Origin: a virus
UHGV virus genome: UHGV-0201389
Direction: 5' to 3' (one strand)
Length of the DNA stretch: 28,978 nt
The first letter of the stretch is position 1. Each line of letters opens with the position of its first letter. Shown here piece after piece: positions 2,440-28,403 of this stretch. Under the pieces are notes generated by a model. That model had not been told where the DNA came from and did not search any database. It was given only the letters and a program-made list of their open reading frames with translations. The position numbers and the translations under genes are program-made.

Positions 2440-3963
2440 ATGTTTAATTTTTTCAAACGCAAAAAAGATATACCCGTGAATCCGGTTAAGAAAATCGGTA
2501 TTCGCCAGCACCGCAAATTATTTGTAGATCGTAAAATCGAAGAATTCACTAAGGATTTACAAAAACGCTCAATGGGTCTACAGGAAAACGACCGATTAGA
2601 GGGCAGTATGGCGCGTCAGGTTATCGCTGGCAGCATTAACAGTGCAATCAAGGGATCTGCATCACGTCTATACAATCAAGGCCGTCACCTTGCTTTGCAT
2701 ACGTCTATCGGTGCTCGTTATTGCCAGCACGTAATTGATTCCGTGGTAGGCACTGGTTTACAGCCGCGCACCTTCGTTATGAAGGGTAATGAATTGGACG
2801 TTGAGACTAACACCGCTATTGAGAATGCTTTTTGGCGTTGGGCGCGTTCTCAGAAACGATTCTCACGCAACGGAAAAGTTAACTTCCTTGAATGCTTAAA
2901 GCTAATGGAAAAAGAGCGTGTGATGGGTGGTGATGCGTTTCTGGTACTCCATGAAGATGGTAAGGATCTGCAAGTATCCATTTACGGCGCGGATTATGTT
3001 GATTGGGCGGACCAGCGCGTTTTAGACAACGGTAATACTGTTTACGCTGGCATCGAATATGAAGATGAAAAACCCGTTGCATATTGGTTTAGACGTCGTG
3101 ACATGTTCACGCAATCTTTCAGCACCGACCGTTATCGTATTCCGGCTGAACGAGTATTTCACTACTTTATCCCTAGCACAGCCGAAGCATTACGCGGCGT
3201 TACTGATTATTTGCCAGTAATTAAAGATATTGCTCACATGGATAGTTTTAGAGAAACAACGATAATTTCTAAACGTGTGGCCGCAAGTAGCATGGGCTTC
3301 ATCACAAGCGACAAAGAAAGTCAAGACTCTTTTGATGTTGGTGAAGACGAGACGGAAAACTATCAACCACCGACAATGATCACCGACTTCGAACCGGGCG
3401 CTATCCACCAATTAGAACCGGGGCAAGATATTAAAACGGTACAATCAAATCAGGGCGGTGATGATTTCGATAAATTTAATGAGGCCATGCTAACGGCAAT
3501 TGCGATGGGTCTCTCCAGCTTTAAACAAGCCCTTACGGGAGATACAAGTTCAATTAACTACTCCAGCGCGAAATTCGGTCATAATATTGAATCCGCTCGC
3601 TTTAAGACGCATCAAGATCGCTTAATTGACACGGTCATCCTTCCGTTATTTCAAGCATTTCTTGAACACGCGGTGATTAACTCTAAAATTAATGTTCGTA
3701 TGACTCAGATCGAATCTATTTTAGATGCAACGACAATTATTAGACCGCGCGTTACGTCAATTGAACCCATCAAAGATATAAACGCGGAAGTTCTCCTGAT
3801 TGACAAGGGTTTAAAATCTAAATCTGCGGTTATTATGGAAATGGGCTACGATCCTGAACAGACATTTAAGCAAATTGAATCAGAGAGACACGCACTAAAT
3901 ACATGCGTCGTGAGTGAGGGTGAGACTGAAAAAGAAAAATTGCCTGATACTCAAAATGAATAA
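2440..3963 (+). CDS. Portal protein
   Basis: 507 aa ORF directly after terL and before the capsid gene; size, acidic C-terminus and gene order typical of portals; SD AAGGA upstream. Confidence 0.75.
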   Translation: MFNFFKRKKDIPVNPVKKIGIRQHRKLFVDRKIEEFTKDLQKRSMGLQENDRLEGSMARQVIAGSINSAIKGSASRLYNQGRHLALHTSIGARYCQHVIDSVVGTGLQPRTFVMKGNELDVETNTAIENAFWRWARSQKRFSRNGKVNFLECLKLMEKERVMGGDAFLVLHEDGKDLQVSIYGADYVDWADQRVLDNGNTVYAGIEYEDEKPVAYWFRRRDMFTQSFSTDRYRIPAERVFHYFIPSTAEALRGVTDYLPVIKDIAHMDSFRETTIISKRVAASSMGFITSDKESQDSFDVGEDETENYQPPTMITDFEPGAIHQLEPGQDIKTVQSNQGGDDFDKFNEAMLTAIAMGLSSFKQALTGDTSSINYSSAKFGHNIESARFKTHQDRLIDTVILPLFQAFLEHAVINSKINVRMTQIESILDATTIIRPRVTSIEPIKDINAEVLLIDKGLKSKSAVIMEMGYDPEQTFKQIESERHALNTCVVSEGETEKEKLPDTQNE

Positions 3964-4005: not shown

Positions 4006-6066
4006 ATGACAGCAAAAAAATTACGTCGTAGCGTTGCGGTAGATGCCCCTGATTTTATCGAAGAAAAAGACGAACGAATTATTGAATTGGCTTTCTCTAG
4101 CGAGGCTCCTTATACACGTTATTACATGAATCAGGACGGCGAGCAAGTCGAATTAAAAGAGATTCTCGTACACGATGAATCAGCGGTTGATCTATCCGTT
4201 TTAAACGAAACTAACGCAAGTCTTCTGTTTAATCACAATCTGGATCTTCATATCGGCAAGATTGTTCCTGGCTCCGCTCGTATCGATGAAGATCGTGTAG
4301 GCCGTTGTCTTGTTCAATTCTCCAAAGTAGGCCAACTGGCTAATGAATGCTTTGAGAAGGTAAAGGAATCCACATTATCACAGGTTAGCGTCGGTTATAA
4401 CGTTCTTGATGGTAAAGCCGATTTTAGCAAAGGGATCTATTACGTTACTCGCTGGCAACCATATGAAGTAAGCATTGTTACGTGTGCCGCAGATCCGTTT
4501 AATGCTGGTGTTGGACGCTCTCTAAATACAGACAACGAAATGATTGTTTTGGAGGGTGAACAAGTGGAAGACGAAATTAAAGAAGAAATTAAACCGGAAG
4601 ATGAAGAAAAACGTTCCGAAGAAGATAAAGAGGAACAGGAAAATGAAGAAATTGATTCCGATTCTGGAAATAGTGTTAACAGTGGCGAAGATGTGGAAAA
4701 CCCGCAAGAAGTAACGCCAGAAGAAAAAGAAAAACGTTCCGAAGATGAACCGGAAGAAGAAATTAAACCGGAAGAAACAGAAGAACTAAATAAAGATACA
4801 GACGAGAACGACGAAACGGTAGAAGAATCCGAGACAGTCGAAGAAGAAAAGATTGAAGACGAAGAAAAACCGTTTGAACGTTCTCGCGAAGATACCGCCG
4901 AAATTCGTGCTATCGGAAAACATCTAAATATTCCAGAAGCAACGATTGAAGCTGCAATTAAAGATAGTGCCGTGACTATTGAAAATTTTAAAGAAAAAGC
5001 ACGCGCACTAAATACTACCGAATCTAAAACTTTTGTTAAAGGAAAAATTACCATGACCGATACCATTAAAACTCTGGAATCTCGTTTCGATCTTAATAAA
5101 GCTGTACGTGCAATCGCAGAGGGTAAAGCACTGACTGGCGCAGAAGCTGAATATTCTCAGGAAGAAGCACGTAAAGCCGCAGCGCGTGGTCGTGCACAGC
5201 GTTCTAACTCCGTATTCATTCCGGCGTCCGCTCTGCGTGCTAGCCAGAACATGGAATCTCTGAAACCTGTAGTTGGTGAAGAAATCCGCCATGATTGCTT
5301 CGTTGATATGATCATGGAACGCTCGATTCTGGGTAAATTGGGTGTTCGTACCATTAACGCAACTGGTCCGGTATCTCTGCCGTCTCTGACTTCCAGCAAT
5401 CTGGAAAACTTCGGTTTTGTTGCAGAAGGTCAATCCGCTGGTGAAGGTACTATCAAGTTTGCAGCACAGCCGATGACTCTTAAGACATTCAATGGAATTG
5501 TTCCTGTAACTCGTCAGGCTGCTATCACTCTGCCTAACATCGGTGCTATCGTTGGTGAGCACATGCTGAAACACAGTGCTATCGCTCTGGAAAAAGCGAT
5601 CCTGTCCAATGCTGCTAACCCTAACGCTCGTGATGGCCTGACTAAGATCCTGACCGACGCTGGCAAAGTTAAACAGATTGATTGGACCTATGCCGAGTTC
5701 CTGAAACTGGTTGCTGAACTCACAGACAAAGGTTTTAACGAATCTGATCTGGCATTTGCTACTCGTGGTGTTGTTAAAGCTGAACTGGCAGCGCAACTCA
5801 AAGCAGCTAATGTTCCGGGCTTCCTGGTAGAAGGCGATAAACTGGTTAACCGTCCGATCTATGGCTCTGGTGTAGTTGCTCAGGATACCATGCTGTTTGG
5901 TGACTTTAGCTCCCTTGTTGTTGCAGACTTCGGATCGCTGGAACTTGATTGCGACGATACCACAGGTCGCGCGGCTGGCAACCTGTACTTCCGTGTATGG
6001 GCTGATCTGGATTGGGCTGTTATGGACCATAGCGCACTGACCGTAGTTCAGAAGAAAGGCGAATGA
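4006..6066 (+). CDS. Prohead protease - acidic scaffold-like linker - major capsid protein fusion (686 aa)
   Basis: N-terminal ~180 aa resemble HK97-type prohead protease; residues ~185-290 are an extremely Glu/Asp/Lys-rich low-complexity region; C-terminal ~350 aa look like an HK97-fold major capsid protein and use strong high-expression codon bias. No separate protease or scaffold gene between portal and capsid. Ends in TGA. Confidence 0.8.
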   Translation: MTAKKLRRSVAVDAPDFIEEKDERIIELAFSSEAPYTRYYMNQDGEQVELKEILVHDESAVDLSVLNETNASLLFNHNLDLHIGKIVPGSARIDEDRVGRCLVQFSKVGQLANECFEKVKESTLSQVSVGYNVLDGKADFSKGIYYVTRWQPYEVSIVTCAADPFNAGVGRSLNTDNEMIVLEGEQVEDEIKEEIKPEDEEKRSEEDKEEQENEEIDSDSGNSVNSGEDVENPQEVTPEEKEKRSEDEPEEEIKPEETEELNKDTDENDETVEESETVEEEKIEDEEKPFERSREDTAEIRAIGKHLNIPEATIEAAIKDSAVTIENFKEKARALNTTESKTFVKGKITMTDTIKTLESRFDLNKAVRAIAEGKALTGAEAEYSQEEARKAAARGRAQRSNSVFIPASALRASQNMESLKPVVGEEIRHDCFVDMIMERSILGKLGVRTINATGPVSLPSLTSSNLENFGFVAEGQSAGEGTIKFAAQPMTLKTFNGIVPVTRQAAITLPNIGAIVGEHMLKHSAIALEKAILSNAANPNARDGLTKILTDAGKVKQIDWTYAEFLKLVAELTDKGFNESDLAFATRGVVKAELAAQLKAANVPGFLVEGDKLVNRPIYGSGVVAQDTMLFGDFSSLVVADFGSLELDCDDTTGRAAGNLYFRVWADLDWAVMDHSALTVVQKKGE

Positions 6067-6201
6067 AATAACGTAGAACCTTCTGTACCTTCCCCCGATT
6101 TGGGGGAAGAAAATCTGATTCCACCACAGGAAGAAGAATCCCAGACGGTTAAGGCGAAAGCCACAGCTAAAAAGGTGGGTCGTCCACCGAAAGCAAAATA
6201 A
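6067..6201 (+). other. In-frame stop-free extension after capsid TGA (44 codons, Pro/Glu-rich then KAKATAKKVGRPPKAK), candidate readthrough product
   Basis: Codon-by-codon reading shows no stop in the capsid frame from 6067 until TAA at 6199-6201; no internal ATG or SD; ends just before a strong terminator. Confidence 0.45.
6148..6171 (+). repeat. 24-nt motif GTTAAGGCGAAAGCCACAGCTAAA (copy 1 of 2)
   Basis: 22/24 nt identical to 11770-11793; both copies sit in the same frame near the end of the post-TGA extensions of the capsid and tail tube genes. Confidence 0.8.
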
Positions 6202-6206
6202 TAATT

Positions 6207-6236
6207 AGCCCTGCCTAACGGTGGGGCTTTTTTGTA
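6207..6236 (+). terminator. Rho-independent terminator after capsid gene
   Basis: AGCCCTGCC-taac-GGTGGGGCT stem-loop followed by TTTTTTGTAT; near-identical to the terminator at 12586-12616. Confidence 0.8.
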
Positions 6237-6970: not shown

Positions 6971-7804
6971 ATGAATATTACACATGATAACTTAGATATT
7001 TTTACTGGAAGCCATGTAGAAGTAAGTATTTCTAACCAGCTAGACAATCAGGTCGACTTTTTCGATCCTAGCTTTAGTGGTATGGAGAACATCGCAGCCT
7101 TTCCTACGCTGACAGAATCAACCGAGATCGAGACTTACGAAGAGTATGATCATGATGCTACTGGTAAGCTGGCTGGCTATCGCAAACTTGAACCGACTAC
7201 GCTCACAGTAAACCGAGTTCTTGACGACGAACATCAAGCAATGTTGATGAAAGCCGTAGAGGATAAAACACCTTTGCGCTTTAGAATGTTCTATGTCGTG
7301 AACTCTGGCTATAGTGCTGCTAACACTGGTTACTATGTCATTTATGATGCTTATGTCACTAGCCATAAAACTCGTGGCGGTGATAACAAAGCTGTAACTA
7401 TGGAATTCAAACTAGAACCAGATGGCGGGATTCTTGCAAGGGGTATTGCAACCGAAGGCCGGATCTTACGTCAGGGTGATTTTGGTCTGGGCGCTGGTGT
7501 AAATCCTTTCACCGGACCTATTGATAGTGAATCTCTGACAGGAAACCGCTTCGTAACCTACAAAGGAACGGCTAGCACTAACCCTTATGGTGCTGATACA
7601 TCGTTAATTCATCTTCAAGCTAATGAGCATGGCGCATGGCAATTAACGTGTAATACTTCCGGTGCTCCACGTTTGCGGGTACGAAATATTCAGGACAACG
7701 GAAAATCGGAATGGATTAAAGTCTATACAACAAATGAGAAGCCAACGCCAGCCGAAATTAATGCGGTTGCTAAGACTGATAGAATCGACTTCGGGGAATA
7801 CTGA
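6971..7804 (+). CDS. Structural protein of unknown function (277 aa)
   Basis: ORF with TAAGGGGTAATAATG initiation motif; ends in TGA but with only 3 open codons downstream; C-terminus has a KPTPAEINAV motif resembling the N-terminus of the next gene. Confidence 0.65.
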   Translation: MNITHDNLDIFTGSHVEVSISNQLDNQVDFFDPSFSGMENIAAFPTLTESTEIETYEEYDHDATGKLAGYRKLEPTTLTVNRVLDDEHQAMLMKAVEDKTPLRFRMFYVVNSGYSAANTGYYVIYDAYVTSHKTRGGDNKAVTMEFKLEPDGGILARGIATEGRILRQGDFGLGAGVNPFTGPIDSESLTGNRFVTYKGTASTNPYGADTSLIHLQANEHGAWQLTCNTSGAPRLRVRNIQDNGKSEWIKVYTTNEKPTPAEINAVAKTDRIDFGEY

Positions 7805-7877: not shown

Positions 7878-10800
7878 ATGCAATCAATCCAATTTAAACG
7901 CACACAGACGGCTGGTAAAAAGCCAACGCCGGAACAATTACAGGTCGGTGAAATCGCTATTCAGATGGCAGACCATGTAATTTATACCAAAGATAAAAAT
8001 AACGCAGTAGTTCAAGTAAGTGTTTCTCCTGAAAGCCATAATGCTTTAAACACGAAAGTAGACAATAACAAGAAAACTACTGATTCTACTATCGCGGCAA
8101 ATAAAACCGAAGCTGCTAACGCTCTGGCTACCGCTAAATCTGAACTGAATAACACCATTACCACGAAAGATACAGCAACCAATAAGCGCATTGATGCTAC
8201 TAACACCACTGTTAGTAACTTAACCCAGACAGTTACGGCAAATAAAACCGACGCTGACAGCAAACATACCACTTTAACTAACACTGTTGCGGCAAACAAA
8301 TCAGCTATTGAAACTACCGTAGCGAATAACAAACGAGATGCGGACAATAAAATCTCAGCTTTAACCACTACGGTTAATGACAATAACACCGCGATCAATA
8401 GCCGTGTTGATGCCACCAACACCAATGTTAGCAATCTGACCAAAACCGTTACAGCTAACAAGTCTGATGCTGATTCTAAGATCTCCAGCTTAACGAGTAC
8501 CGTTGCGGCTAACAAATCAGCCATTGAAACTACGGTAGCGAACAATAAACGCGACGCTGATACGAAGATCACCAACTTAACCAACACTGTTAATAGCAAC
8601 CACACCGCCATTAACGCGAAGGTAGACAAAAACAAGACCGATGCAGATGCAGCGATTGCAGCCGCTAACCGTCGAATTGATGGTATTGAAGGTAGTGCCG
8701 ATGCTGCTTACATCAAGAAGAATACCAATACCTATCATCATGGCTATCTGTTAAGCAAGACTGCTAACTACTTTGATGATACCGGTGCTCGTAACCTTGA
8801 TTATTTTGGTGCGTTTCGTCCGAACAATGCCGAAGGGTGGGGTAACTTAATCCTTAACATTCCTCATTCTGGCGGTAAAGCACACGGTCGCGGCTTTGAG
8901 TTCCATTATGGGTCTAGCTCATCTCAGGTTAAAACCTATGGCTTTGATGCTAACGGTGCTAAAAGATTCAGCTATCGCATGTATCACGAAGGTGATAAAC
9001 CTACACCATCGGAATTGAACGTTTACAGCAAACAAGAAGTTGATCGTATGTTTGTTAAAAACGTTAAAATGTCGGTTCCTTCTGGTGATGCAACTCGTGG
9101 ATATTTTAAGATTGCAACCGCAATGATTCCGCAGCAAGGCAGAATGGCATTTATTCGCATCTATGGTGGTAACGGTTATAACGTTAATTCTTACGATCAA
9201 GTTGACTTTCTTGAAATTGTTATCCGTAGCGGCAACGGAAACCCTAAAGGAGTTAGTATTGCTGCATATCGTCGAAATGCTAAAAATATTCATCAAGTAT
9301 TTGCGGTTAACACTTCCGGTGATAACTACGATATCTACGTTAACTACGGTCGTTATACTGATAACGTTATTGTCGAATATGGTAAAACTAACGATGTTAC
9401 ACTGACGGTACATGACGTTCCTGAAATAACTCTCGTTAAGCCGTCCACTGGTGTTACTGATGGTAAAGTAATTACCATGTTTAACACAGAGAACAAAGCC
9501 GGAACTATTCGTTTTGATGATAATACACAGGGAACTTACGATATTATCAGTTTGTGTAATGATACTGGTGATGGTAAAAAATATCTTCGTCAGTTCCGTA
9601 GTAAATCAGGTCATACTATTTGGCATGAAACTGTTCAGGGTAGCGTGTACCGCCTAGCTACTGGCACTACTGACTCAAACGAAGTTCTTAAAATTACCGA
9701 CCGCACGCTGCAAACTGGTCGTGCTGTTCTTGATGGTGGTAATATTCGTTTAGAACGCCAGACAGGGAATAGTAACCTTGTTGAATATTGGGATCGTCGT
9801 AACGGTGCTAACGTTCGTCAATCATGGTTTGGTTTTGGTAATGCCGACACTAACGCATTCCAGATCTATAGTGATGCTGGTAAAAACAACTTTGCGTTAG
9901 AACAAAGCGGTCAGATCTCTCTTAATGTTGGTGCAACAAAAATTGTCCATACCAACGGGCAATATATTTCAACTAACGCTGATGCATATCGTATGATTTA
10001 CGGTAATTACGGTGCATTCTGGCGAAATGATGGTGTTAAAACCTATCTTCTGTCTACCGCCGAAAATGATAAATGGGGTAGCTGGACTGGAAACCGTCCA
10101 TTCATTTATGAATTTAGTTCCGGTAACGTTAATTTAGGTGGTGATTCCAATAAATCCGCATTGACCTTAGAAGGTGCAAGCAAAGCCGCTCGATTTGGTG
10201 GTCATGTTTATACTGGCGGTAACTTACATAATACTGGACAGCATATAACGATGGAAGCCGGACTTGCTGGACAATCCCGCGATTTTATTCGCTTTAACCA
10301 TTGGGGTGATAGCAGTAACGGTCGTGATAACGTCCTGTATGTGGAAGATAGCAAAGGACGTCATTTCAGCACCGAGCGTAATATGGCTACTGGTGGATTG
10401 AAAGCAAACTTCTTAGGAGACTTTGAAGTTGGTGGTAAATTGACATGGGGTAAAGGTACAGCACAATCCTCGTTTAACTGTCGTGTTTGGGGTAATGCTG
10501 ATCGTAAACAGGTTTTAGAGTGGGCTGATGAAAGCGGTTGGCATTTCTATAGCCAGCGTGCAGGTGGTCCAGGAACTACAGCGATTCAGTTTAGTGTAAA
10601 TGGACAAATCAACGCACAAAACTTGAACGTTTCTGGTAAGGTTACTACCCCGCAAATTAGCGCATTTGGTGTAAACGTTGCTAATGGATTAGGTGGCAAC
10701 TCAATTGTTTTGGGTGATAGTGATACTGGCTTTAAGCAAAACGGCGACGGTATTTTAGATGTATATGCTAACAATGTGGCAGTAATGCGTTTTACTTCCG

Positions 10801-11156
10801 GTGCAATCACCGCAAACAAAGCAGTAAACGTAACTGGTCGAGTTACACCAACTGATTACGGTAACTTTGACGGTCGTTATATCAAAAAGACGAAAGGTTG
10901 TACTAAAATCTGGTCCGGTACTCTCCCTGGTAATACCCAGACCGGAGGTTTACCACAAGATCTCCGCTTCCGTAATGTGTGGATTCTTGACGCCGCAGGA
11001 TTTAACCATTTTATCCGTTTTGCCAATGACGGGAACTATTACCTGGCTGGTAACGGTGGATGGATTAAAATCCAACTTCACTCTAGCGGTAAAATCTTTA
11101 AGAACATTCAAGATTCTAACTTCGTTCCGCGTGAAATCTGGGTAGAAAACGAATAA
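7878..11156 (+). CDS. Tail fibre protein (1092 aa) with conserved fibre N-terminal motif and internal tandem repeats
   Basis: N-terminus KRTQTAGKKPTPEQLQVGEIA resembles the attachment motif seen at the start of many phage tail fibres; ~72-aa Thr/Asn/Ala-rich tandem repeats; Gly/Asn/Tyr-rich C-terminal half. Confidence 0.8.
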   Translation: MQSIQFKRTQTAGKKPTPEQLQVGEIAIQMADHVIYTKDKNNAVVQVSVSPESHNALNTKVDNNKKTTDSTIAANKTEAANALATAKSELNNTITTKDTATNKRIDATNTTVSNLTQTVTANKTDADSKHTTLTNTVAANKSAIETTVANNKRDADNKISALTTTVNDNNTAINSRVDATNTNVSNLTKTVTANKSDADSKISSLTSTVAANKSAIETTVANNKRDADTKITNLTNTVNSNHTAINAKVDKNKTDADAAIAAANRRIDGIEGSADAAYIKKNTNTYHHGYLLSKTANYFDDTGARNLDYFGAFRPNNAEGWGNLILNIPHSGGKAHGRGFEFHYGSSSSQVKTYGFDANGAKRFSYRMYHEGDKPTPSELNVYSKQEVDRMFVKNVKMSVPSGDATRGYFKIATAMIPQQGRMAFIRIYGGNGYNVNSYDQVDFLEIVIRSGNGNPKGVSIAAYRRNAKNIHQVFAVNTSGDNYDIYVNYGRYTDNVIVEYGKTNDVTLTVHDVPEITLVKPSTGVTDGKVITMFNTENKAGTIRFDDNTQGTYDIISLCNDTGDGKKYLRQFRSKSGHTIWHETVQGSVYRLATGTTDSNEVLKITDRTLQTGRAVLDGGNIRLERQTGNSNLVEYWDRRNGANVRQSWFGFGNADTNAFQIYSDAGKNNFALEQSGQISLNVGATKIVHTNGQYISTNADAYRMIYGNYGAFWRNDGVKTYLLSTAENDKWGSWTGNRPFIYEFSSGNVNLGGDSNKSALTLEGASKAARFGGHVYTGGNLHNTGQHITMEAGLAGQSRDFIRFNHWGDSSNGRDNVLYVEDSKGRHFSTERNMATGGLKANFLGDFEVGGKLTWGKGTAQSSFNCRVWGNADRKQVLEWADESGWHFYSQRAGGPGTTAIQFSVNGQINAQNLNVSGKVTTPQISAFGVNVANGLGGNSIVLGDSDTGFKQNGDGILDVYANNVAVMRFTSGAITANKAVNVTGRVTPTDYGNFDGRYIKKTKGCTKIWSGTLPGNTQTGGLPQDLRFRNVWILDAAGFNHFIRFANDGNYYLAGNGGWIKIQLHSSGKIFKNIQDSNFVPREIWVENE
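8187..8618 (+). repeat. Two tandem ~216-nt (72-aa) repeat units inside the tail fibre gene, with a degenerate partial copy upstream
   Basis: RIDATNTTVSNLTQTVTANKTDADSK...AANKSAIETTVANNKRDAD recurs as RVDATNTNVSNLTKTVTANKSDADSK...AANKSAIETTVANNKRDAD; nucleotide copies differ mostly at synonymous positions. Confidence 0.8.
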
Positions 11157-11229: not shown

Positions 11230-11706
11230 ATGTCTCAACAATTCAAAGATATTTTTACTGGTGGTCTGGTAAGTCTGTTCTATCACGCCGATACCACTAA
11301 CACCGCTCTCGATCATGAAAGCTATGAAGAAATTAAAGAGTGTGCTGGTTTCCCTGAAACTGGTATCGAGCGCGGTACTGTAGAAGTTAAATCCTTCTCT
11401 TCTCAGTATAACCGCAAGCTGGTAGGTAAACTGAACGTTCCTGATCTGACTCTGACCGTTAATTATATTCCCGGGGATACCGTGCATGAGCGTCTTATTA
11501 AGGCTGCCGAAGATGGTACCCGTATTCAGATTAAGATTGAATACTATGTTGACGCAGCAAAACAGACTGGTATTCGCACCGCTTTCAACGGCTTTATTTC
11601 TAAAGTTGCTATGCAGGGCGGCGATGAAGAAGTGGTAACTAAAGAATTTACCTTTGCTGTTGATGGTGCTCCGCTGAAACAGGAAATCTTCAATACTGCC
11701 GCTTGA
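11230..11706 (+). CDS. Major tail tube protein (158 aa)
   Basis: TAAGGGGTAATTATATG initiation motif, strong high-expression codon bias, sits directly upstream of the chaperone pair and tape measure gene. Ends in TGA. Confidence 0.75.
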   Translation: MSQQFKDIFTGGLVSLFYHADTTNTALDHESYEEIKECAGFPETGIERGTVEVKSFSSQYNRKLVGKLNVPDLTLTVNYIPGDTVHERLIKAAEDGTRIQIKIEYYVDAAKQTGIRTAFNGFISKVAMQGGDEEVVTKEFTFAVDGAPLKQEIFNTAA

Positions 11707-11814
11707 ACTGTCGAAGAACAACCACAGCCGATTCCTGATGAACCTACGGTGATCCCAGAAGTTGAGGTTGTTATGGTGAAAGCCACAGCTAAACGAAGCC
11801 GCAAGGCAAAATAA
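11707..11814 (+). other. In-frame stop-free extension after tail tube TGA (35 codons, Pro/Glu-rich then VKATAKRSRKAK), candidate readthrough product or reinitiated micro-ORF
   Basis: No stop in the tail tube frame from 11707 until TAA at 11812-11814; contains ATG at 11773 preceded by GAGG; immediately followed by a strong terminator. Confidence 0.45.
11770..11793 (+). repeat. 24-nt motif GTTATGGTGAAAGCCACAGCTAAA (copy 2 of 2)
   Basis: 22/24 identity with 6148-6171 in the same reading-frame context. Confidence 0.8.
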
Positions 11815-11818
11815 TTTT

Positions 11819-11848
11819 AAGCCATCCGAAAGGGTGGCTTTTTTATTT
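11819..11848 (+). terminator. Rho-independent terminator after tail tube gene
   Basis: GCCATCC-gaaa-GGGTGGC stem with GNRA loop followed by TTTTTTATTT. Confidence 0.8.
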
Positions 11849-11889
11849 CTAATAAATACATCGTAATCACTTTTATGAGGACTCCAAGA

Positions 11890-12198
11890 ATGAATATCAA
11901 CGATTTACTGAAAGCTCTTTCCCCGAAACGTGAAGCAATGGAAATCAACGGCTTCAAATTTTATGCTCGCCCTATGAGCGTAAAGGAATTTAACGAGCAT
12001 ATTCAGAATAACAACAAAGAAGACCGCGACGAGCGTACTATTTTGCGCTGTATCGAAGATGAAAGCGGTAATCCTGTTTTCACTAACGTTAAGCAGGTTA
12101 AAGCCCTTTACACTACCGTTAAAGCTCAATTGATTGGTCTGGTGGCACTGGCTTCTATGATGCCGGAACCGAGTAAGGTAGAAGAATCGGTAAAGTAA
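11890..12198 (+). CDS. Tail assembly chaperone (gpG-like position); alternative start at 11875
   Basis: Small acidic ORF between tail tube and tape measure genes; ATG at 11890 is preceded by GAGGA, whereas the longer start at 11875 has no SD. Confidence 0.6.
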   Translation: MNINDLLKALSPKREAMEINGFKFYARPMSVKEFNEHIQNNNKEDRDERTILRCIEDESGNPVFTNVKQVKALYTTVKAQLIGLVALASMMPEPSKVEESVK

Positions 12199-12227: not shown

Positions 12228-12575
12228 ATGATGCGCAGGGGATTAAGTAAAGATGAAATGGATAATATGCCAGTTCCATTATTTTGGTCGCTGCATATTT
12301 TCGACACCTACTTAGAACCACAATCCCCCGTATTTCAAGACATGCAAAATGCAATGATGCAATATTCCCTTTATATGACTTCTCAGGGAATGACCAAAGA
12401 AATGGCTAAGAAAATCAAACCTAGCCAATTCCAGTTAATCAAAGAAGAGAAAATCTTCAAGACTAAAGAAGAACTGGAAGAAATCGAGCGTAAGCGCGAA
12501 GAAGAACGCAAAGCTGCAATGTTGAGCATGTTCGATCCGGCGTTAGTCAATAAGTTAAGGGCGACCGCTGAATAA
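12228..12575 (+). CDS. Second tail assembly chaperone-like protein (gpT-like position, 115 aa)
   Basis: ORF in the -1 frame relative to the preceding chaperone, directly upstream of the tape measure gene; Glu/Lys-rich C-terminus; no obvious SD of its own. Confidence 0.55.
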   Translation: MMRRGLSKDEMDNMPVPLFWSLHIFDTYLEPQSPVFQDMQNAMMQYSLYMTSQGMTKEMAKKIKPSQFQLIKEEKIFKTKEELEEIERKREEERKAAMLSMFDPALVNKLRATAE

Positions 12576-12585
12576 TTGAATTATA

Positions 12586-12616
12586 AGCCCTGCCTTTATC
12601 GGTGGGGCTTTTTTGT
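12586..12616 (+). terminator. Rho-independent terminator before the tape measure gene
   Basis: AGCCCTGCC-tttatc-GGTGGGGCT stem-loop followed by TTTTTTGTAT; paralogous to 6207-6236. Confidence 0.8.
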
Positions 12617-12638: not shown

Positions 12639-15146
12639 ATGTCAGAATTTAAAATTGGTATTACTGGTGTAACCAGTGGCCTAGAATCTGCCGCAAATAA
12701 AGCAAGCGGTATTCTTGATGGCCTTGCTTCCGGTGGCGTTGATGGCTTGACTAGTTCCGTAGGTGGATTGTTAGGCAAGCTGGGTCCATTGGGTATGGCT
12801 GCTGGTGCTGCTTTAGGTGCTCTTACTGCTTTAGCTGCTGGTGGCGCTAAAATGGCTGTTGAATATGCCAACATGTCGAGAGAATTTGGCGTTAATATTG
12901 AGCAAATCCAGAAGTTAGAAAAAGTTTATAGTGGTTTTGGTCTGAATGCCGAAAAAGTTCTTGATATTAACAAGGATGCAGCCGAGAAATTAGGGGAAGC
13001 ATGGCGAGACGGTACAGGGGAATTTCAAGCCGCTCTTAAAATGATTAAAGGTGATATTAAGGATTACGCGGCCTTTACCGACGATCCAGAAGGGGGTCGC
13101 AAAGCTGCTGAAATGTGGTACTACCAAGCGAAGGCCGCAGGATTAAGCCATTCTGAAATCATCGCGGGTATGGAACGTATTGCTTCCGATTCCAGTAAGA
13201 TGATCGGTGCTTTGTCTGAATCAAACGATTATTGGGAACATCAAGTTAAGCTACAACAAAAAGCCGCTTATGTCTCAGAGGAAACCGCTACCGCATATGC
13301 CGACGCGGGGTCTAAACTGACCGAGTTAGGGAAGACCATAATGGGTGCTTTCGCGGATTTATTTTCGTTCCTCCCGAAAGGATTCAACTTAATCTATGAT
13401 TATTTCACTAAAGATTTTGCGAATACTACTTTCTATTTGAGCATTAAGGCTATCAGCACGTTTATTGCTGAAAAACTGCCTCCTTTGTTCCAGAAAGCTA
13501 AGACCGCGTTAACGTCAGCCATTAACCCGATCATCAATACCATTAAAACCGTACAGGAAACGATGGTTAATCTTTACAATAAGATTGCCGAAATCATCGC
13601 TAAAGTACAGAACATGATCCGCAAGGGTGGTAAAACTATAGCTGGCTGGTTTGGTGCTGATGCCGACTTCCTGAATTTTGAAATCCCAGCATTGACTACC
13701 GATAACATCAAGAAAGGTGCTCAAGCGTTAGCCGATGGTATAGCCAGTGGAGTTAGTAACGGGACAGCAACCAGCTTTGATGAACTGGCAGAACAAGAAC
13801 GCAAGAAACAAGCGGCTGAACTCCAAGCGCAAGCGGACGAACTGAAACGGAAACAGGAAGAAGAGAACAAACGTAATGTTCAAGTTCTTTGCCCTATCTG
13901 TAAAAAAGGCGCACATAGTGCCGCAGATTGTCCAGAAGCCAAGAAACAGAAAGATGCAGCTAAGAAGGCCGCAGACGAAGCGAAGAAATTGCGTGAAAAG
14001 GCATACAAGGATTTAGAGGCAATCAATATTTCTTTGTATAGCTCCGTGCAAGCGTCTGTAGCTTCCTCGAATAAACAGATCGTAGAAAACCTTGCTAAGT
14101 TAGATAACGCTCTGAAACAGGGTATTATCACGCAAGAACAATACGAAGAAAAACGTCGTCAGCTTATTGATGCTAACGCGGAAAACTTCCGTAAATCTGT
14201 ATTAGGTGCTAATCCTTCCGATGCTCTCCAGATGTTAGCGGCATCACGTCAAATCTATGACCAGTCGGTTGCAGATCTTGAAATGATGTACAACAACAAA
14301 CTGATTAAGCAATCTGAATACTTACAGCGTAAAAAGGATTTAGAGGCTGCTTTCTCTGCTCGTACCGATGCGACTACCGGATTAGAAGGTATCAAATCTA
14401 ATGAGATGCTCAATTCTTACGGTAATCGTGATCAGACTATCGATGAGATGAAAGCCGTTGATGTCGAGAAGGCCAACACTGAATATTCAGAACATAAAGC
14501 CAAGATCGATAAGCTGCCTCAAGCTGAACAATTTAAGCAATTGCAAGCTCTCAATGAAGCGCACAATAAGAAAATGCGTGAAATTGACTTAAAATACAAT
14601 AACATGCGCTTGCAAGATACACAAAATATGTTCGGTGGATTTGGTGAAGCATTACAAGCATTTGGCTTAGAGAATAACGCTGTTACTAAGGGTATCTTTG
14701 CCGCTCAGAAAGGCGTGTCTATTGCACAAGGTTTGCTCAATGCTCATGAGGCCGCAACGGTAGCTATGGCTAAGTACCCAGGACCATTGGGTGTTGCTAT
14801 GGGTGCTGCAAGCTATGCGTCCGCAATTGCTCGTGTTGCTCAGATGAAATCAATCACCGTTGATGGTATGGCGCATGATGGTATTGATAACATCCCGCGT
14901 GAGGGTACATGGCTTTTGCAGAAAGGGGAACGAGTCGTTGATGATCGTACTAACGGTGATCTGAAAGACTTCCTATCTGCTCAAAAATCAGGCGGTAATA
15001 ACAACTCTCAGCCGATTGAAGTTAATGCGCCTTTGAACATTAACGGCAATGTCAATAGCTCCGACAAGATGGTCATGGATGCTATCAAACGTCATGCTAA
15101 GTTGGTTGCTCAGGCGGTGGAAGACGCACAGCGCCGTAAGATGTAA
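12639..15146 (+). CDS. Tail tape measure protein (835 aa)
   Basis: Long ORF after the chaperones; Gly/Ala-rich hydrophobic N-terminal segment, extended Ala/Lys/Glu-rich coiled-coil-like regions, Gly-rich hydrophobic segment near the C-terminus; SD AAGAGG upstream. Confidence 0.85.
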   Translation: MSEFKIGITGVTSGLESAANKASGILDGLASGGVDGLTSSVGGLLGKLGPLGMAAGAALGALTALAAGGAKMAVEYANMSREFGVNIEQIQKLEKVYSGFGLNAEKVLDINKDAAEKLGEAWRDGTGEFQAALKMIKGDIKDYAAFTDDPEGGRKAAEMWYYQAKAAGLSHSEIIAGMERIASDSSKMIGALSESNDYWEHQVKLQQKAAYVSEETATAYADAGSKLTELGKTIMGAFADLFSFLPKGFNLIYDYFTKDFANTTFYLSIKAISTFIAEKLPPLFQKAKTALTSAINPIINTIKTVQETMVNLYNKIAEIIAKVQNMIRKGGKTIAGWFGADADFLNFEIPALTTDNIKKGAQALADGIASGVSNGTATSFDELAEQERKKQAAELQAQADELKRKQEEENKRNVQVLCPICKKGAHSAADCPEAKKQKDAAKKAADEAKKLREKAYKDLEAINISLYSSVQASVASSNKQIVENLAKLDNALKQGIITQEQYEEKRRQLIDANAENFRKSVLGANPSDALQMLAASRQIYDQSVADLEMMYNNKLIKQSEYLQRKKDLEAAFSARTDATTGLEGIKSNEMLNSYGNRDQTIDEMKAVDVEKANTEYSEHKAKIDKLPQAEQFKQLQALNEAHNKKMREIDLKYNNMRLQDTQNMFGGFGEALQAFGLENNAVTKGIFAAQKGVSIAQGLLNAHEAATVAMAKYPGPLGVAMGAASYASAIARVAQMKSITVDGMAHDGIDNIPREGTWLLQKGERVVDDRTNGDLKDFLSAQKSGGNNNSQPIEVNAPLNINGNVNSSDKMVMDAIKRHAKLVAQAVEDAQRRKM

Positions 15147-16457: not shown

Positions 16458-16877
16458 ATGCTAAAAACTAGGCTTATCACTGATTACATCAATTCATTAA
16501 TAGGTCGGGAATTCGTTCAAGGTGAGAATGATTGCAATCTGATTGCATGTAAGATCATCGATATTCTCGCAGGGACCGACCTGTTTAATTCTCTATATCA
16601 AAAATATTCGACAAAAGAAGAAGGCTTGAAAATCTGCAAAGAATTAAGCGGATACACAAACATCCTTCAACCAATTAAAGAACATTTCAAATTAGTCACT
16701 GATGATTTACAGGACGGCGACTTACTGGTCACAGCCCACAAATTAGGAAACCGTAATTATTATTCCGTAGTTCCTCATTATTCCGGTTATGGCCTCGTTG
16801 AAGAAGATGGTATCTGGATGACCATTCCTGTTTCAGACATTGACTATGAACAAGTTTATAGATTCGGGGGTGAATAA
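16458..16877 (+). CDS. Tail tip assembly protein with NlpC/P60-like domain, gpK-like (139 aa); the listed ORF start at 16302 is rejected
   Basis: [12 protein letters not shown] Cys motif and downstream His residues consistent with an NlpC/P60 papain-like fold; SD GGAGG 8 nt before the ATG at 16458; stop overlaps the gpJ-like start (TAATG). Confidence 0.55.
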
Positions 16878-19800
16878 TGGGAATTGAAGTATTGGTAGGC
16901 GCGGTTATTGCTGGTGCGTCTGCTGGGATGGCTGCTGCTGCAACATTTTCTGTTATGACCGCAGTCGCTATCGGTATGGCTGCTGGTGCTATGACCTTGA
17001 TCGCTTCCACTGTAGGCGCACCAAAAACACCAAAAGTACAAAGCCCAGATAATGCGGTGACGCTAGGAACATCAAACGATCCTAAGACAGTATTACCCGT
17101 TCTTTTCGGTACTACCCGTACTGGTGCGATTTGCGTTTATAAGGCTATTTCTAAGAAAGAAAACAATAAGTTAGTTCAAATCTTCGCAATTGCAGAAGGT
17201 GAAATTGACCATTACAAAGCACTGTTTATCGATAATAAAAATGTTCTCGTTGGTAAGAACATGACGATCCGCGATGGTGTACTGGACAAGGGCAACATTA
17301 AAGAAGAATACCGGAAAGTATTAGAGGTTGAATTCCGCACTGGTAAGAATCCTAACACCGCCTTGTCACTGGCAAAAACTCACTTAGGCTCAGACTGGAC
17401 CGACGCTTACAAGGGTAACGGCATTGCTACCATGTGTATTGTTTTACGCCGTGATGATAAATCTCTTGCTGCTGGTGTTGATATTCTCCAGCCTAATAGC
17501 CAAGTGGCAGTCGATGTTATGGGCTTAAAAATTCGTAACCTTGAAACCAATGCTATTGAGGCCAGCACTAACGGCGTGGACCAGATTTTCCACTACCTAA
17601 CAAATGAAAAATATGGTCTTTCAGTACCAATTGAAAACATTAACGTTGATTCGTTCCTGAAAGTTCGCCAGCAAGTTCGCCAAATGGACCTACATTCAAA
17701 CGGTGCATGTGATCCGAACGCCAGCTTTAAAGAGAACTTAACTAGCCTTATGCAGACTTTCGGCGGGGTGATGTTCGAATCCTTCGGACGTATTACTCTG
17801 AAACTGGATGCTCCTGATATTGTTAAGCATGTATTCAATGAAGACAATATTATGATGGGTAAGGTATCGCTTAAGACTGGTGGCACTAACGGTTATTTCA
17901 ATACCATTAACGCGATGTATCAAGAACCATCAATTGACTATTCAGAGCAAATGCTACGTTATCCGGCTGATGCTGAAAATGATGCTACTATCCGCGAAGA
18001 TGGTCGAATTATTGCCAAAGATATTGAATATCGTTTTGTTAAGTCTAAAGACCAGATTGATAAACTTGCGAGCATTGAACGAAATAAATCTCGAATCACT
18101 CAGGTTATCAGCTTTATGACTACTGACGCATTCACTGCCGAAGTGTGGGACGTTATCAGCGTAACCTATGATGAATTAAAACTGAATAATTCCTTATGGC
18201 GTATTACTGCAATTGATCGCAGTATCGATTCTGGTATTGCTGGGATGATGACTATCACCGCCACAGAATATAATTCTCAGGTTTATACTGACCTGAACTA
18301 TGCGGCGAATCCAGACAATAGACCAACTGGTTTACCGGATTCAATGACAGTACAGAAGCCAACTAATTTCAGAATTAAGGCAACTGGTGAGACAATCCAC
18401 GGTAAAAACGTTACTTTGACATGGGATGCACCGGAAGACTTCAACCGTTACGGCTTCCAGATTGATTACAAAGTGAGTGGATCACCTAACTGGATTAAGC
18501 TGGGACAGACTTCACAGCAAATTTTCAATATCAATGCACTGGCAAAAGATCGTTCCTACGATTACCGCGTGTGTGCTTTCGGTATCATCGCCCGTTCTGA
18601 TTGGGTAGAACTGGTTAACCAGAATCCAGAAGTTACCTATGAACTACCTACGCCAGTGATCCGTATTAAAAATCAGGGTAGCACACCTGGTACTTTCGAA
18701 GGCAATGATCTGATTATTGAATGGGATAACCAGCAAAAATTAGATGTTGTTATCAACGGTGAAACTAACAAGTTTAGCGACCTGTTCGAAGCCTACATTA
18801 TCAAGGTAACTAACAAGGCTGGTAAGTCTATTCAGTACCGTACCCGCGATCCTGAATCGTGGACCTATACGCTTGATATGAACCAGTTTAACGGCCTTTC
18901 CCGTCAACTGACGGTAGAAGTATCCGCTAAGGGTTATAACAACTCTGTGAGCGCTCCAGCGCGTTTAGTGGCTATTAACCCACAGCATAAGCCAATGAAA
19001 GGATTTAGTGCGCGTGGTGGCTTTAATAGTGTGTTTGTTAGCTGGACCGATGACGTAGAACATGACTATGCAGGGTCAATCATTCAGTATGCAACCGACA
19101 ATACTTTCTCTGATGCAAGGGCGGTGACAACTAACAGCGTTAGCCATACTTCCTTTGATTTGGCTGATGGTGATTATTATATCCGTGGTGCTCACTACGA
19201 TATTTTCGGTATCGATGATGCTGTTTGGTCTGAACCTTATTACATGTCTATGCAATCTTCGATTAGTTGGGAAGATCAGGACAAAGAAGCACTGGAAGAC
19301 CTGATTGGTTTACAGGATCGCTTAGATGAAACTATCGCTGATGCTATTGCTCAAGCTGGCGCTAATGCTGATGCTAAAATCGATGCAATGCATAAGCAAA
19401 TCACCACCGAAACGGGTAAAACTGTTCAAGCCTCAGCCGATACCTTAAAGAGTCTGATTACTTCTGGTGATCAAGCCAGTGCAACTAAGATTGATCAGGT
19501 TAAAGCTGAACTAAAAGGCGATATCACGAAAGAGGTTAGCGCATCTGCTACTACCCTGAAACAAGCTATTGCAACCAGTGAGGCAGCAAGCGCAAGTAAG
19601 ATTGATCAAGTTCGGGTAGAAATGGACGGTAAGATTGCTGGCGTTAACCAGGAAGCAGATGTAAAAATCGATGCTTTGAAGGGAACCATTAACAGCAAAT
19701 ATAATCTGGCAGTTAATGCAGATGGTCGCGTGGCTGGTATTCACATGAGCGCAACCAACGATCCGGCACAACCGACGAGAATCATCTTTACGGCTGATAA

Positions 19801-20653
19801 AATCGCGGTAGCTCCACAATCTGGATCGGGTGTTTGCCCGTTTGGTATCGAAAATAACAAGGTTTATCTCGATAATGCCATGATTCGTAATGCTGCAATT
19901 GGCACAGCACAGATTAATGATGCGGCTATTACTACCGCTAAGATCGGCAATGCTGCAATTAACAGCGCGAAGATTCAGGACGGGGCAATCACTAACGCCA
20001 AGATCGTAAACGGTGCAATTGATAATGCCAAAATCGGTAACTATATCCAGTCTTCCAACTGGAACGGATCTACCGGATGGCATATTAACAAGAATGGTAG
20101 TGCTACGTTCATGAACGCCACCGTTAAAGGTAATATCACGGCTGATTCTGGTACTCTGAACAACGTCACGATTAACTCTAGCTGTGTTATTAAGGGTATG
20201 CTTGAAGCTACTCAGGTTAAGGGTGATTTCGTTAAGGTGATTGGTCGTAAGTTCCCGCACCGTGATGTTAACGTTGATAATGGTTATGCAGGTTATCCAC
20301 AGGGTACGGTCACTGTTCGCGTTGAAGATGATCATAACTTTGACCGTCAAATCGTTATTCCGGCAATTAGTTTTGGTGGATTGCGAGCGCGTGAAGGATC
20401 GAACGGTAATACGTTTTATGACACATGTCGCCTAATTGTTCGTAAGAATGGGTCAGAGTTGTATAATAGGGCGTATGGTGGCAATACTGGTCTTTACTCT
20501 GGTGTTATTGATATGCCGAGGGGTGGTGGTGCTGTAACTATCACGTTTGAAGTACAATCAAGCGCAATCAACAACTGGACACCGAGTACATGGATTAGTG
20601 ACTTAACGGTAATGGTAACTAAGAAAGCAACTACCGGTATTACTGTTTCTTAA
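16877..20653 (+). CDS. Central tail fibre / host specificity protein, lambda gpJ-like (1258 aa)
   Basis: Follows the gpK-like gene as in lambda; Gly/Ala-rich hydrophobic N-terminus; fibronectin-III-like segments; Ala-rich coiled-coil repeats; AKI-type short repeats; C-terminal ~150 aa ([12 protein letters not shown]...[13 protein letters not shown]...LTVMVTKK) resemble, from memory, the lambda J receptor-binding domain. Confidence 0.85.
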
Positions 20654-22636: not shown

Positions 22637-22701
22637 CTGGCGCAAATTGACGATAGCGCCCGTGTCGCGCAGAGTACGAGAAATCAGAATTGAAAGTTGT
22701 T

Positions 22702-22857
22702 ATGGCGGCAGATGATGAGATTTTGCCACTTGACACAAAGATCGCTTATTATCAAATGGTAATGGATTTTGCTGGTCGTGCACTGGATATTGTTAAATCT
22801 CGTGGGTTTGCGATCAAGAATGCTATAGAATTGCGTATGTTGGAATCCGGTCGATAA
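22702..22857 (+). CDS. Small hypothetical protein (51 aa), uncertain
   Basis: Sub-60-aa ORF translated manually; weak RBS; lies between two terminators. Confidence 0.3.
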   Translation: MAADDEILPLDTKIAYYQMVMDFAGRALDIVKSRGFAIKNAIELRMLESGR

Positions 22858-22877
22858 ATATATGCAGGAGGAATTTT

Positions 22878-22964
22878 ATGAGTGAATGTATTTGTAGTGT
22901 ATGCAAACAGCCAGTAGAATTGGCGTTTGTGATTAAAGTAAACGACCATGTTGTTCACCCTTAA
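22878..22964 (+). CDS. Cys-containing micro-protein (28 aa, MSECICSVCKQPVELAFVIKVNDHVVHP), uncertain
   Basis: Consensus SD AGGAGG 7 nt upstream of the ATG; CxCxxC motif; directly upstream of a bidirectional terminator. Confidence 0.35.
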   Translation: MSECICSVCKQPVELAFVIKVNDHVVHP

Positions 22965-22979
22965 AATAACTAATTATCA

Positions 22980-23012
22980 AAAAGCCCCAACCGAAAGGAA
23001 GGGGCTTAATTT
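22980..23012. terminator. Bidirectional terminator at the strand switch
   Basis: AAGCCCC...GGGGCTT stem with internal CC-gaaa-GG, T runs on both strands; abuts the helicase stop codon. Confidence 0.75.
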
Positions 23013-28061: not shown

Positions 28062-28403
28062 TCAGTCTTTGAAGTCGATGGTCACGTTACCTTTAAGGGC
28101 AAGTTCCATTAAGCAACTGCGCTCATCCTTCATGCTCTTACACAATTTCATCCCATAAACGACGAGATTATCTTTCTCTTTCCAATATTTTTGTTTCTCT
28201 GCATAAACCTCGCTATATTCACTATCTTTGAGTGAGAGAGCATTTTCTAACTGGCTAATCTCCTGATTCAGATCCTTAATCTCAGCCTTAGTTGACCGGA
28301 TAGTCTCTTGATGTTGAGTATCGGAATAGTCATACCCACAAGCAAATCCACCAATGCCACCAACACACACAGAAACAATAATTGCGTAGATAGTCTTTTT
28401 CAT
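28062..28403 (-). CDS. Secreted or membrane-anchored coiled-coil protein (113 aa)
   Basis: N-terminal signal/anchor MKKTIYAIIVSVCVGGIGGFA with a possible cleavage or weak lipobox at FA-C; heptad-rich middle; two C-terminal Cys; SD AAGAGGA upstream. Confidence 0.6.
   Translation of the reverse strand: MKKTIYAIIVSVCVGGIGGFACGYDYSDTQHQETIRSTKAEIKDLNQEISQLENALSLKDSEYSEVYAEKQKYWKEKDNLVVYGMKLCKSMKDERSCLMELALKGNVTIDFKD

Follow-up and report, generated by a model that had tools for sequence, protein, structure and literature searches.

Comparative genomics suggests programmed UGA readthrough at the end of the tail tube gene in a family of Escherichia coli prophages

The DNA analysed here is a stretch of 28,978 nucleotides (nt) from the UHGV virus genome UHGV-0201389 (in the following, the window), which corresponds to the structural and lysis half of a temperate siphovirus-type prophage, as seen from the list of its open reading frames (ORFs) and from domain and family searches. 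The major tail tube gene of this prophage ends with a TGA stop codon followed by A, behind which the same reading frame remains open up to a double TAA beside a terminator, and a homologous extension lies behind the TGA of the major capsid gene. We propose that programmed low-level readthrough of the tube UGA-A would give rise to a minor, C-terminally extended form of the tube protein, in parallel to the capsid, and we assign to this reading a probability of about 0.75. A preliminary description of the window had reported the GCT-TGA-A end of the tube gene, the 35 open codons and the terminator, all of which are present, and had explained them by a leaky TGA yielding a minor extended tube protein, an explanation that the comparative tests described below support. 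The elements at the end of the tube gene are the following:

11230-11706, plus strand: major tail tube gene, 158 codons plus TGA, identified by its ORF, phrog_158, its fold and its gene position
11704-11707, plus strand: proposed recoding site UGA-A (TGA stop with A at +4)
11707-11769, plus strand: first part of the extension, an acidic Pro/Glu-rich spacer (TVEEQPQPIPDEPTVIPEVEV) with net charge -6 and 5 Pro
11770-11811, plus strand: second part of the extension, a basic end (VMVKATAKRSRKAK) with net charge +6, which holds a 24-nt motif (11770-11793)
11717-11784, plus strand: predicted RNA stem domain (11717-11723 with 11765-11771) and GGU-GAAA-GCC hairpin (11775-11784) from a minimum free energy fold, weak in the window copy
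11812-11820, plus strand: double stop TAA-TTT-TAA that ends the extension, with TAA and a backup TAA in all relatives
11819-11840, plus strand: intrinsic terminator hairpin and T run (9 pairs, 5 of them G-C), kept after every variant, with or without extension

The tube ORF begins with ATG at 11230, and its 158 codons end with ...GCC GCT TGA (stop at 11704-11706, A at 11707). The 35 open in-frame codons that follow (TVEEQPQPIPDEPTVIPEVEVVMVKATAKRSRKAK) lead up to TAA at 11812-11814, and beyond a single TTT codon a second in-frame TAA is found at 11818-11820. In the window the terminator hairpin reads GCCATCC-GAAA-GGGTGGC, whereas most relatives instead have a capsid-type hairpin after the tube extension.

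The gene at 11230-11706 encodes a tail tube protein of the lambda gpV type. The product belongs to the family phrog_158 (E = 1e-20) and has weak matches to Pfam TTP_11 and TTP_12, the former marginally under the cutoff (28.0 bits vs 28.4), and the gene lies directly upstream of the genes for the tail assembly chaperone G/GT and the tape measure, as expected for a gpV-type tube. When the extended protein was modelled with AlphaFold2 from an alignment of 30 sequences, the tube core reached a predicted local distance difference test (pLDDT) score of 80-92, and Foldseek matched this core to the tube structures of lambda, YDC107 and NF5 with E = 1.5e-6 to 8e-6 (structural matches of the lambda gpV type: YDC107, lambda 8k36, 7t2e, 7t4f, NF5 and 80alpha). 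Residues 159-194, which make up the extension, have pLDDT values below 50 and no secondary structure, hence no Ig-like or FN3-like domain is present in the model, and the extension is predicted to be an intrinsically disordered appendage.

The capsid gene of the window has the same arrangement, with these elements:

4006-6066, plus strand: prohead protease-major capsid fusion gene (Peptidase_S78 and Phage_capsid; phrog_617), ending with GAA TGA (6064-6066) and then A
6067-6204, plus strand: sister extension of the capsid gene, 44 codons (NNVEPSVPSPDLGEENLIPPQEEESQTVKAKATAKKVGRPPKAK) and TAA TAA (6199-6204), with the motif at 6148-6171
6207-6228, plus strand: terminator after the capsid extension

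The two extensions share the 24-nt motif, of which the tube copy (11770-11793, GTTATGGTGAAAGCCACAGCTAAA) and the capsid copy (6148-6171, GTTAAGGCGAAAGCCACAGCTAAA) are identical at 22 of 24 positions, as had been stated before. A degenerate form of this pattern occurs exactly twice in the window and in none of 100 shuffles. The segment GG(C/T)-GAAA-GCC in the tube motif region could fold into a mini-hairpin. The earlier argument that two such occurrences are unlikely by chance thus holds, although they are not independent as it had assumed, since the sequences identify the two extensions as homologous copies of one module. By chance alone, an open frame of 35 codons has a probability of ~0.19; judged from the sequences, open frame, motif and conservation together exceed chance expectation. 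The terminator at 6207-6228 is also near-identical to the one at 12585-12610, after the chaperone T gene (AGCCCTGCC..GGTGGGGCTTTTTTGTAT).

The dichotomy between TGA and TAA across relatives is read directly from the sequences, as are the anatomy of the extensions and their conservation. The comparison of stop contexts that had been suggested earlier gave a consistent picture, with TGA-A invariant where the extension is present and TAA at the terminator where it is absent. The tube sample consists of 31 genes of the window lineage (26 examined first and 5 added from E. coli chromosomes) with 82-98% amino-acid identity. TGA-ACT is found in 31/31, preceded by GCT, GGA, TCT or GGT, and every one of the 31 has an extension of 35, 36, 39, 40 or 41 open codons that ends with TAA-TT(A/T)-TAA and the terminator. 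Among the E. coli-type capsid genes (~30 unique 3' ends), every one has TGA-A(CT/AT) followed by 28, 33, 42, 43, 44 or 45 open codons and then TAA TAA, or TGA TAA in one type, and this set includes a lineage that is only 38-39% identical in the capsid body. Natural controls are provided by two sister lineages of the tube gene (72% and 58-61% identity), carried by phages that are otherwise comparable, in which the extension is absent and TAA-TAA or TAA-T stands directly at the terminator, whereas the capsid genes of the same genomes retain TGA and extension. TAA is likewise the stop in the Salmonella, Hafnia and DCP80 relatives, and in those from Salmonella it ends both the tube and the capsid gene at the terminator.

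Within the window, TAA ends 21 of 25 genes, TAG none and TGA four, namely the capsid and tube genes, the gene at 6971-7804 and a gene on the minus strand at 28062-28403 (TGA-A, 18 open codons). Against the TAA preference of the phage, TGA serves the two genes for which the highest expression is expected. In highly expressed genes TAA is normally preferred; UAA-U is the most efficient bacterial termination signal, and in E. coli tRNA-Trp misreads UGA most readily when A follows (PMC5289835). UGA is the leakiest E. coli stop codon, with ~2% readthrough in one reporter, mostly by insertion of Trp and dependent on context and growth condition, and ordinary E. coli genes with TGA tend to carry nearby backup stops (PMC11126739). 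By these measures of leakiness and termination, no stop weaker than the first is available, and the second is of the strongest kind and doubled (PMC11126739; PMC5289835).

The extension also behaves like a reading frame. Loss of frame conservation in relatives, which the preliminary description had named as an argument against readthrough, is not seen, as every length variant (at least 11 classes) keeps frame 0 open to the terminal TAA beside the terminator, and each unique variant has 1-6 stops in frames +1 and +2. The length of the tube spacer differs among relatives by multiples of 3 nt only; single-nucleotide indels are present just downstream, in non-coding DNA. The design of a linker with a basic tail, noted before on the tube and the capsid, recurs across relatives as an acidic spacer and a basic end, with a charge pattern that is kept despite differing residues and codons (net -4 to -9 for the spacer, +5 to +6 for the last 14 residues). 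Variants of the basic end include KRSRKAK, KRGRKAKN, KKVGRPPKAK, KKQRKTKE, KKERKTKAK and KRGRKPKE.

As far as the sequences tell, the tail is a genuine part of homologous proteins elsewhere. Distant capsid homologues without an intervening stop end in Ala/Lys-rich tails (...QAKAPASK, ...AEAKSKA, ...KAAQKASA and ...AEAKAAKQ, each followed by the stop), and further constitutive capsid tails end with ...AEAKAGK, ...ETRKAK, ...NKATAAGK and, in Salmonella, ...EASKAK. The Edwardsiella tube protein ends constitutively with ...NVIPEAVAAKEK and has a VIPE motif in common with the ...TVIPEVEVV... of the window. In Edwardsiella, Proteus and DCP80-like phages, a similar basic tail is encoded across the capsid stop, in the -1 frame, up to the terminator. 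One of these -1-frame capsid tails, VIPTGREEVSVKSGRKPKTDN, is clearly homologous to the E. coli tube extension VIPEVEEVTAKATAKRGRKAKN, and others read VISQAVGSEVSVKKAKKAKAE, ...AAPVRKPRALKVTK and ...RKAKAKAKAKAETAE, all ending at a stop codon. In 7/7 such cases (L034, 2750-2870; L035, 4535-4655; L001, 6530-6660; L113, L114, L122 and L123, ~2440-2600) the stop is preceded, at a distance of 2-3 codons, by an in-phase Lys-codon slip motif, which is A_AAG in three cases and A_AAA_AAG, A_AAA_AAA, A_AAA_C or A_AAA_A in one each. The -1 frame opens only just upstream of the slip motif, and the -1 ORFs of L113 and L114 have no start codon of their own. A hairpin downstream of the -1 sites shows one compensatory change between L113 and L114 (CAGGAGAA/TTCTCCTG vs CAGGAGCA/TGCTCCTG). 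On this sequence evidence, the -1 sites in the Edwardsiella, Proteus and DCP80-like capsid genes are candidate unannotated frameshifts. Because homologues encode the same tail by these different routes, it can be viewed as one appendage, which some phages carry constitutively, others apparently gate by a frameshift, and the E. coli clade gates by UGA. A similar indifference to the route of recoding is known for the Ig-like extensions on structural proteins of phages (PMC5009743).

Two further 3' ends were noted in this comparison. The window chaperone gene ends with GTA AAG TAA, and the -1 frame from A_AAG (12192-12195) runs stop-free into the ORF at 12228, which makes this tetranucleotide directly before the stop probably the site of the canonical G/GT -1 frameshift, as judged from sequence. 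The Hafnia-type capsid genes L036 (4669) and L070 (5669-5687) are 95% identical at their ends and differ in GAA vs TAA six codons from the end, so that one protein ends with ...PAGVEAKSKA and the other reads ...PAGV-stop-AKSKD-stop. This difference is either a simple loss of the Ala/Lys tail or another gated tail, behind TAA.

Several points weigh against readthrough and in part favor a role at the RNA level. The ratio pN/pS is only moderately below 1 (0.43 for the tube, 0.73 for the capsid extension), which amounts to weak purifying selection on the residues, and the variable sites are distributed over the codon positions as 11/12/18 and 11/19/15, without concentration at the third position. 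Weak residue constraint is expected of a disordered linker, yet it is no proof of coding. The terminal Lys codons overlap an A-rich tract upstream of the terminator and could reflect a composition bias. Most relatives are close (82-98% tube identity), their sequences are often non-independent, and the tube extension is essentially that of one lineage. The whole case is built on comparative genomics, and the function of the tail is conjectural. Part of the conservation appears to be at the RNA level, as no variation is seen in the stems CCUUCCCCC/GGGGGAAG and GGC-GAAA-GCC, synonymous sites included, and the tube extensions of most relatives, like the capsid extension, outfold their shuffles with z-scores of ~-1 to -7. 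The stretch between TGA and terminator might therefore be a structured 3' untranslated region (UTR) that acts as a stabiliser, as a processing or protein-binding site or as the precursor of a small RNA, with an open frame that is incidental or kept harmless. The capsid extension in particular would be a strongly structured RNA (z = -4.5), a compensatory pair is found in L003 (GGUGG/CCACC to GGCGG/CCGCC), the most conserved nucleotides are those of the 24-nt motif of both genes, and the fairly high pN/pS points the same way. Two stem pairs of the tube covary (UA to AU), but this is a single haplotype, and one recombinant breaks them. The window tube extension itself has no significant structure (z = -0.8, or ~-0.6 with a mononucleotide-shuffle control), and a scan of the whole window with Rfam, including its families for the selenocysteine insertion sequence (SECIS), returned no family at the gathering score. 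A structured 3' UTR moreover leaves unexplained why TGA-A goes with the presence of the stretch and TAA with its absence, why frame 0 is open to the terminator in all length variants with the other frames closed, why the acidic-then-basic pattern is kept by different codons, and why homologues carry the same tail fused or in the -1 frame behind slip sites. We therefore regard an RNA element in place of a coding extension as unlikely, albeit the most serious of the competing explanations. Structure and readthrough are compatible, and the structure may be an added layer, either a stimulator of readthrough or a stabiliser of the mRNA. Pairing begins at nt 14, counted from the U of UGA, in 25 of 42 unique variants, and a closed stem domain and then the GGC-GAAA-GCC hairpin follow. 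The structure could stimulate readthrough because the 10-nt spacer would put the stem at the mRNA entrance with UGA in the A site; to our knowledge, no structural stimulator of readthrough is established for bacterial ribosomes.

The remaining explanations concern how, or whether, the extension is translated. It could encode a separately initiated small basic peptide, of 13 amino acids (aa) from the ATG at 11773, as the preliminary description had considered, or of 21-22 aa from a conserved GTG at 11746. The ATG, the GAGG 5 nt upstream of it and the 13-aa ORF are all there, but the peptide itself did not survive the comparison, as the ATG is ACG (Thr) in 30/30 relatives examined and GAGG is restricted to a minority haplotype. 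The GTG at the V-I-P position (GTG ATC CCA) is present in all tube extensions but lacks a Shine-Dalgarno sequence. In Edwardsiella and Proteus the GTG at which the capsid-tail ORF starts shares bases with the capsid stop (GTGA), an arrangement that would permit termination-reinitiation, and DCP80 has an ATG-initiated ORF of 21 codons; the -1 ORFs of L113 and L114, by contrast, offer no start codon for such a peptide. No conserved in-frame start is found in the capsid extensions (L018 has no ATG, GTG or TTG, and L067 has one GTG 8 codons from the end), and the spacer upstream of any candidate start also retains frame and composition, all of which makes a separate peptide very improbable. Nearly as hard to sustain, and if anything a little harder, is a decaying remnant, in which a longer tube or capsid gene was cut by a nonsense mutation and the downstream codons are not yet degraded. 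The fused tails of more distant homologues, the plain GAA to TAA change between L036 and L070 that removes the last five capsid codons, and the weak residue constraint would fit such a history, but the same TGA is fixed in both genes and across capsid bodies down to 38% identity, the many indels are in frame with zero frame-breaking ones, and the first stop is always TGA-A and never TAA or TAG. In other groups of phages, suppressor tRNAs of their own are known to recode stop codons, and the RNA hairpin downstream of the UGA could be taken as a hint of dedicated TGA decoding (SECIS and selenocysteine, a phage suppressor tRNA or an alternative code) with the long form as the main late product. 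This would be the least expected outcome and is hardly credible, as there are no tRNA genes in the window and none annotated in the complete 38-kb relative prophage, so that no suppressor tRNA is seen; the large window ORFs are intact under code 11, in which TGA occurs only as the terminal codon of four genes; and the predicted stems, whose sequences differ among variants, do not start until 10 nt past the stop, whereas a SECIS hairpin would lie directly behind the UGA.

Other candidates were set aside on inspection. Among homologues inspected for a sense codon in place of the TGA, the only apparent full-length fusion, P0001 (198 aa), is the product of a gene caller that translated TGA as W and is not evidence. 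Overlapping starts at the stop (TTG-A, ATGA) lead only to ORFs of 2-11 codons in other frames, matching take-off and landing codons for hopping over the tube stop are not seen around the TGA, and frameshifting into the tube extension does not apply, as the extension is in frame 0 directly after the TGA and a slippery site is absent at 11704.

With programmed readthrough as the preferred reading, most ribosomes would terminate at 11704-11706 and release the 158-aa tube protein, and a few percent, by analogy with the UGA leakage measured in E. coli, would continue for 35 codons to TAA-TTT-TAA. That the extension is translated at all is a point that we infer, and so are the identity of the decoding tRNA, the level of readthrough, the position of the tail outside the virion and its role. 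The decoder would most likely be host tRNA-Trp, placing Trp at the stop position, and the product would be a variant of 194 aa that co-assembles into the tube. The Trp-containing junctions would then be QEIFNTAA-W-TVEEQPQPIPDEPTVIPEVEVVMVK in the tube and GE-W-NNVEPSVPSPDLGEENLIPPQEEESQTVK in the capsid protein, whose gene would use the same device with its homologous extension (6064-6204). The resulting appendage would be bipolar, with the acidic Pro/Glu spacer bearing a 14-residue Lys/Arg/Ala-rich end at the C-terminus. HK97-fold capsid proteins and encapsulins expose their C-termini outside. As the C-terminus faces the outside of the virion both in gpV-type tubes and in HK97-fold capsids, flexible cationic tethers would be displayed on head and tail, and a rough estimate gives a handful to a couple of dozen of them per head and per tail if 2-5% readthrough, ~400 capsid subunits and ~180 tube subunits are assumed, all of these values being assumptions. 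The leaky stop would keep the copy number low, and a tail on every subunit would disturb assembly. As to the role, weak electrostatic binding to polyanionic surfaces such as lipopolysaccharide (LPS), capsule, mucus or nucleic acid is our first guess and a conjecture. More tentatively still, and with more doubt than confidence on our part, the observations could be extended to a family-wide picture, in which a polycationic tether on head and tail is dosed by recoding and the route is swapped freely in evolution. The E. coli prophages would then use readthrough of UGA-A, possibly boosted by the RNA stem domain 10 nt past the stop; Edwardsiella, Proteus and DCP80-like phages would use a -1 frameshift at A_AAG or A_AAA_AAG; and Salmonella- and Hafnia-type phages would fuse the tail constitutively.

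The proposed device is like Qbeta A1 in its mechanism and like the recoded proteins of A2, PSA, A118 and T7 (10B) in its biological logic, and it is a member of neither group. As in Qbeta, a leaky UGA would end a major structural gene of an E. coli phage, and the in-frame extension would give a low-copy co-assembling variant. The UGA of the Qbeta coat gene is read by tRNA-Trp in ~5% of cases, A1 is essential for infectious particles, and host tRNA-Trp is the presumed decoder here too. However, Qbeta is a single-stranded RNA levivirus with a folded extension of ~195 residues, whereas the phage studied here is a double-stranded DNA (dsDNA) temperate siphovirus without any sequence relationship to it, in which two genes (capsid and tube) would be concerned and the extensions are of 28-45 residues, disordered, with a polycationic end, and known from sequence alone. 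Related cases of recoded structural proteins are SPP1 gp17.1* and, by frameshifting, gene 10A/10B of T7 and T3. In Lactobacillus phage A2, frameshifting (-1/-1) yields long forms of the major head and tail proteins, and in the Listeria phages PSA, A118 and A500 a +1 or -1 shift occurs in cps and a +1 shift at CCC_UGA in tsh (PMC5009743). With A2, PSA and A118 the window shares recoding, here proposed, at the 3' ends of both capsid and tube genes, which gives two C-terminal variants each, and in relatives of the window phage the capsid tail would be reached by the -1 frame behind A_AAG or A_AAA_AAG; unlike theirs, the window extension is in frame, requires no frameshift and has no Ig-like or folded domain.

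In lambda, gpV has the same tube-domain fold and an appendage at the outward-pointing C-terminus, but the lambda domain is present on every subunit without recoding, and the identity of gpV to the window tube protein is only 12-15%. The C-terminus of gpV leads to an external Ig-like domain, fusions at this site display at low copy number, and amber suppression in lambda D mixes wild-type and fusion gpD on one particle (PMC6260602). Non-programmed leakage of UGA in E. coli would be of the same mechanism and magnitude as assumed here; the difference is that the window frame is open for 28-45 codons up to a double TAA, and that TGA is chosen against a strong TAA preference. Programmed readthrough of stop codons is well established for RNA viruses and for Qbeta. 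A 2019 review of recoding lists Qbeta as the only phage example of readthrough and no case in a dsDNA phage (PMC7026636). Published readthrough in capsid or tail genes of tailed phages was not found in the literature searched, the coverage of which is incomplete, so that this is an absence of evidence.

If the proposal is true, it would be the first natural programmed readthrough in a structural gene of a dsDNA phage, as far as we found, and one protein tail for which readthrough and frameshifting are interchangeable would be available as a natural system. Annotation of a common E. coli prophage family would lack the long forms of its two most abundant virion proteins, and PGAP marks neither extension. 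The family would furthermore serve as a natural model of how context, and possibly structure, drives the leakage of UGA in E. coli, with the TAA lineages as built-in controls, and readthrough, -1 frameshifting and direct fusion would represent evolutionarily interchangeable ways to dose one appendage. The tail would also be a ready-made low-valency display site on head and tail, and should the tether affect adsorption or retention in mucus or on LPS, it would be relevant to gut phage ecology and phage engineering.

The other genes identified in the window include, in this order after the gpJ-like tip, an M15 endolysin, a UvsW-like helicase and a large serine recombinase, as well as the following:

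45-1859: gpA-type large terminase
2440-3963: lambda-type portal
7878-11156: T4 gp34/gp37-like fibre
11875-12198 and 12228-12575: tail assembly chaperones
12639-15146: tape measure
16877-20653: gpJ-like tip

Prophages closely related to the window are found in at least 20 complete E. coli chromosomes, dozens of IMG/VR contigs also hold close relatives, and the prophages that carry the fixed TGA come from at least 5 countries and several hosts. Among 50,697 deposited phage genomes, megablast with a 901-nt region gave no close DNA match, and of a 25-kb query nothing matched but T4-like patches, located in the fibre gene and around uvsW/uvsY. A profile search of genome contigs with the tube-protein alignment gave no match. 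The sole cultured-phage relative, reached through protein search and distant, is Escherichia phage DCP80 (L001, PQ671644.1), which is the only deposited phage related to the capsid/tube module. Its 141-kb record is assigned to Straboviridae/Gaprivervirus and encodes a gpA-type terminase, an HK97-type protease-capsid fusion and a lambda-type tube, so that either the classification or the assembly is questionable. One relative, L074 of E. coli E275a (NZ_CP035865.1, 2168786-2206646), is a 38-kb prophage whose insertion has split the antitoxin gene hicB into two partial pseudogenes; a large serine recombinase is used, and the fibre gene is split by IS2.

The T4-like patches in the window (22662-24506 and 8744-9695) have 75-90% DNA identity to T4-like (RB49/Krischvirus) phages and span the UvsW-type helicase, the uvsY-adjacent region and part of the gp37-like distal tail fibre, which looks, at the sequence level, like recent exchange between virulent myoviruses and the prophage. 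The 277-aa protein encoded at 6971-7804 is a second match to the major-tail-protein family phrog_158 (E = 2e-9); its gene sits between the head genes and the fibre gene, ends with TGA-T and has the next stop 3 codons on, and the product is kept in all relatives (275-281 aa, or 446 aa in the Hafnia type). In most relatives (L145-L149 and most of those from IMG/VR) a gene for a gp38-like receptor-recognising adhesin lies downstream of the tube terminator, so that the tube gene stands between the fibre gene and the adhesin, whereas the window instead has the chaperone gene directly after it. Tube gene, extension and terminator together behave as a mobile cassette.

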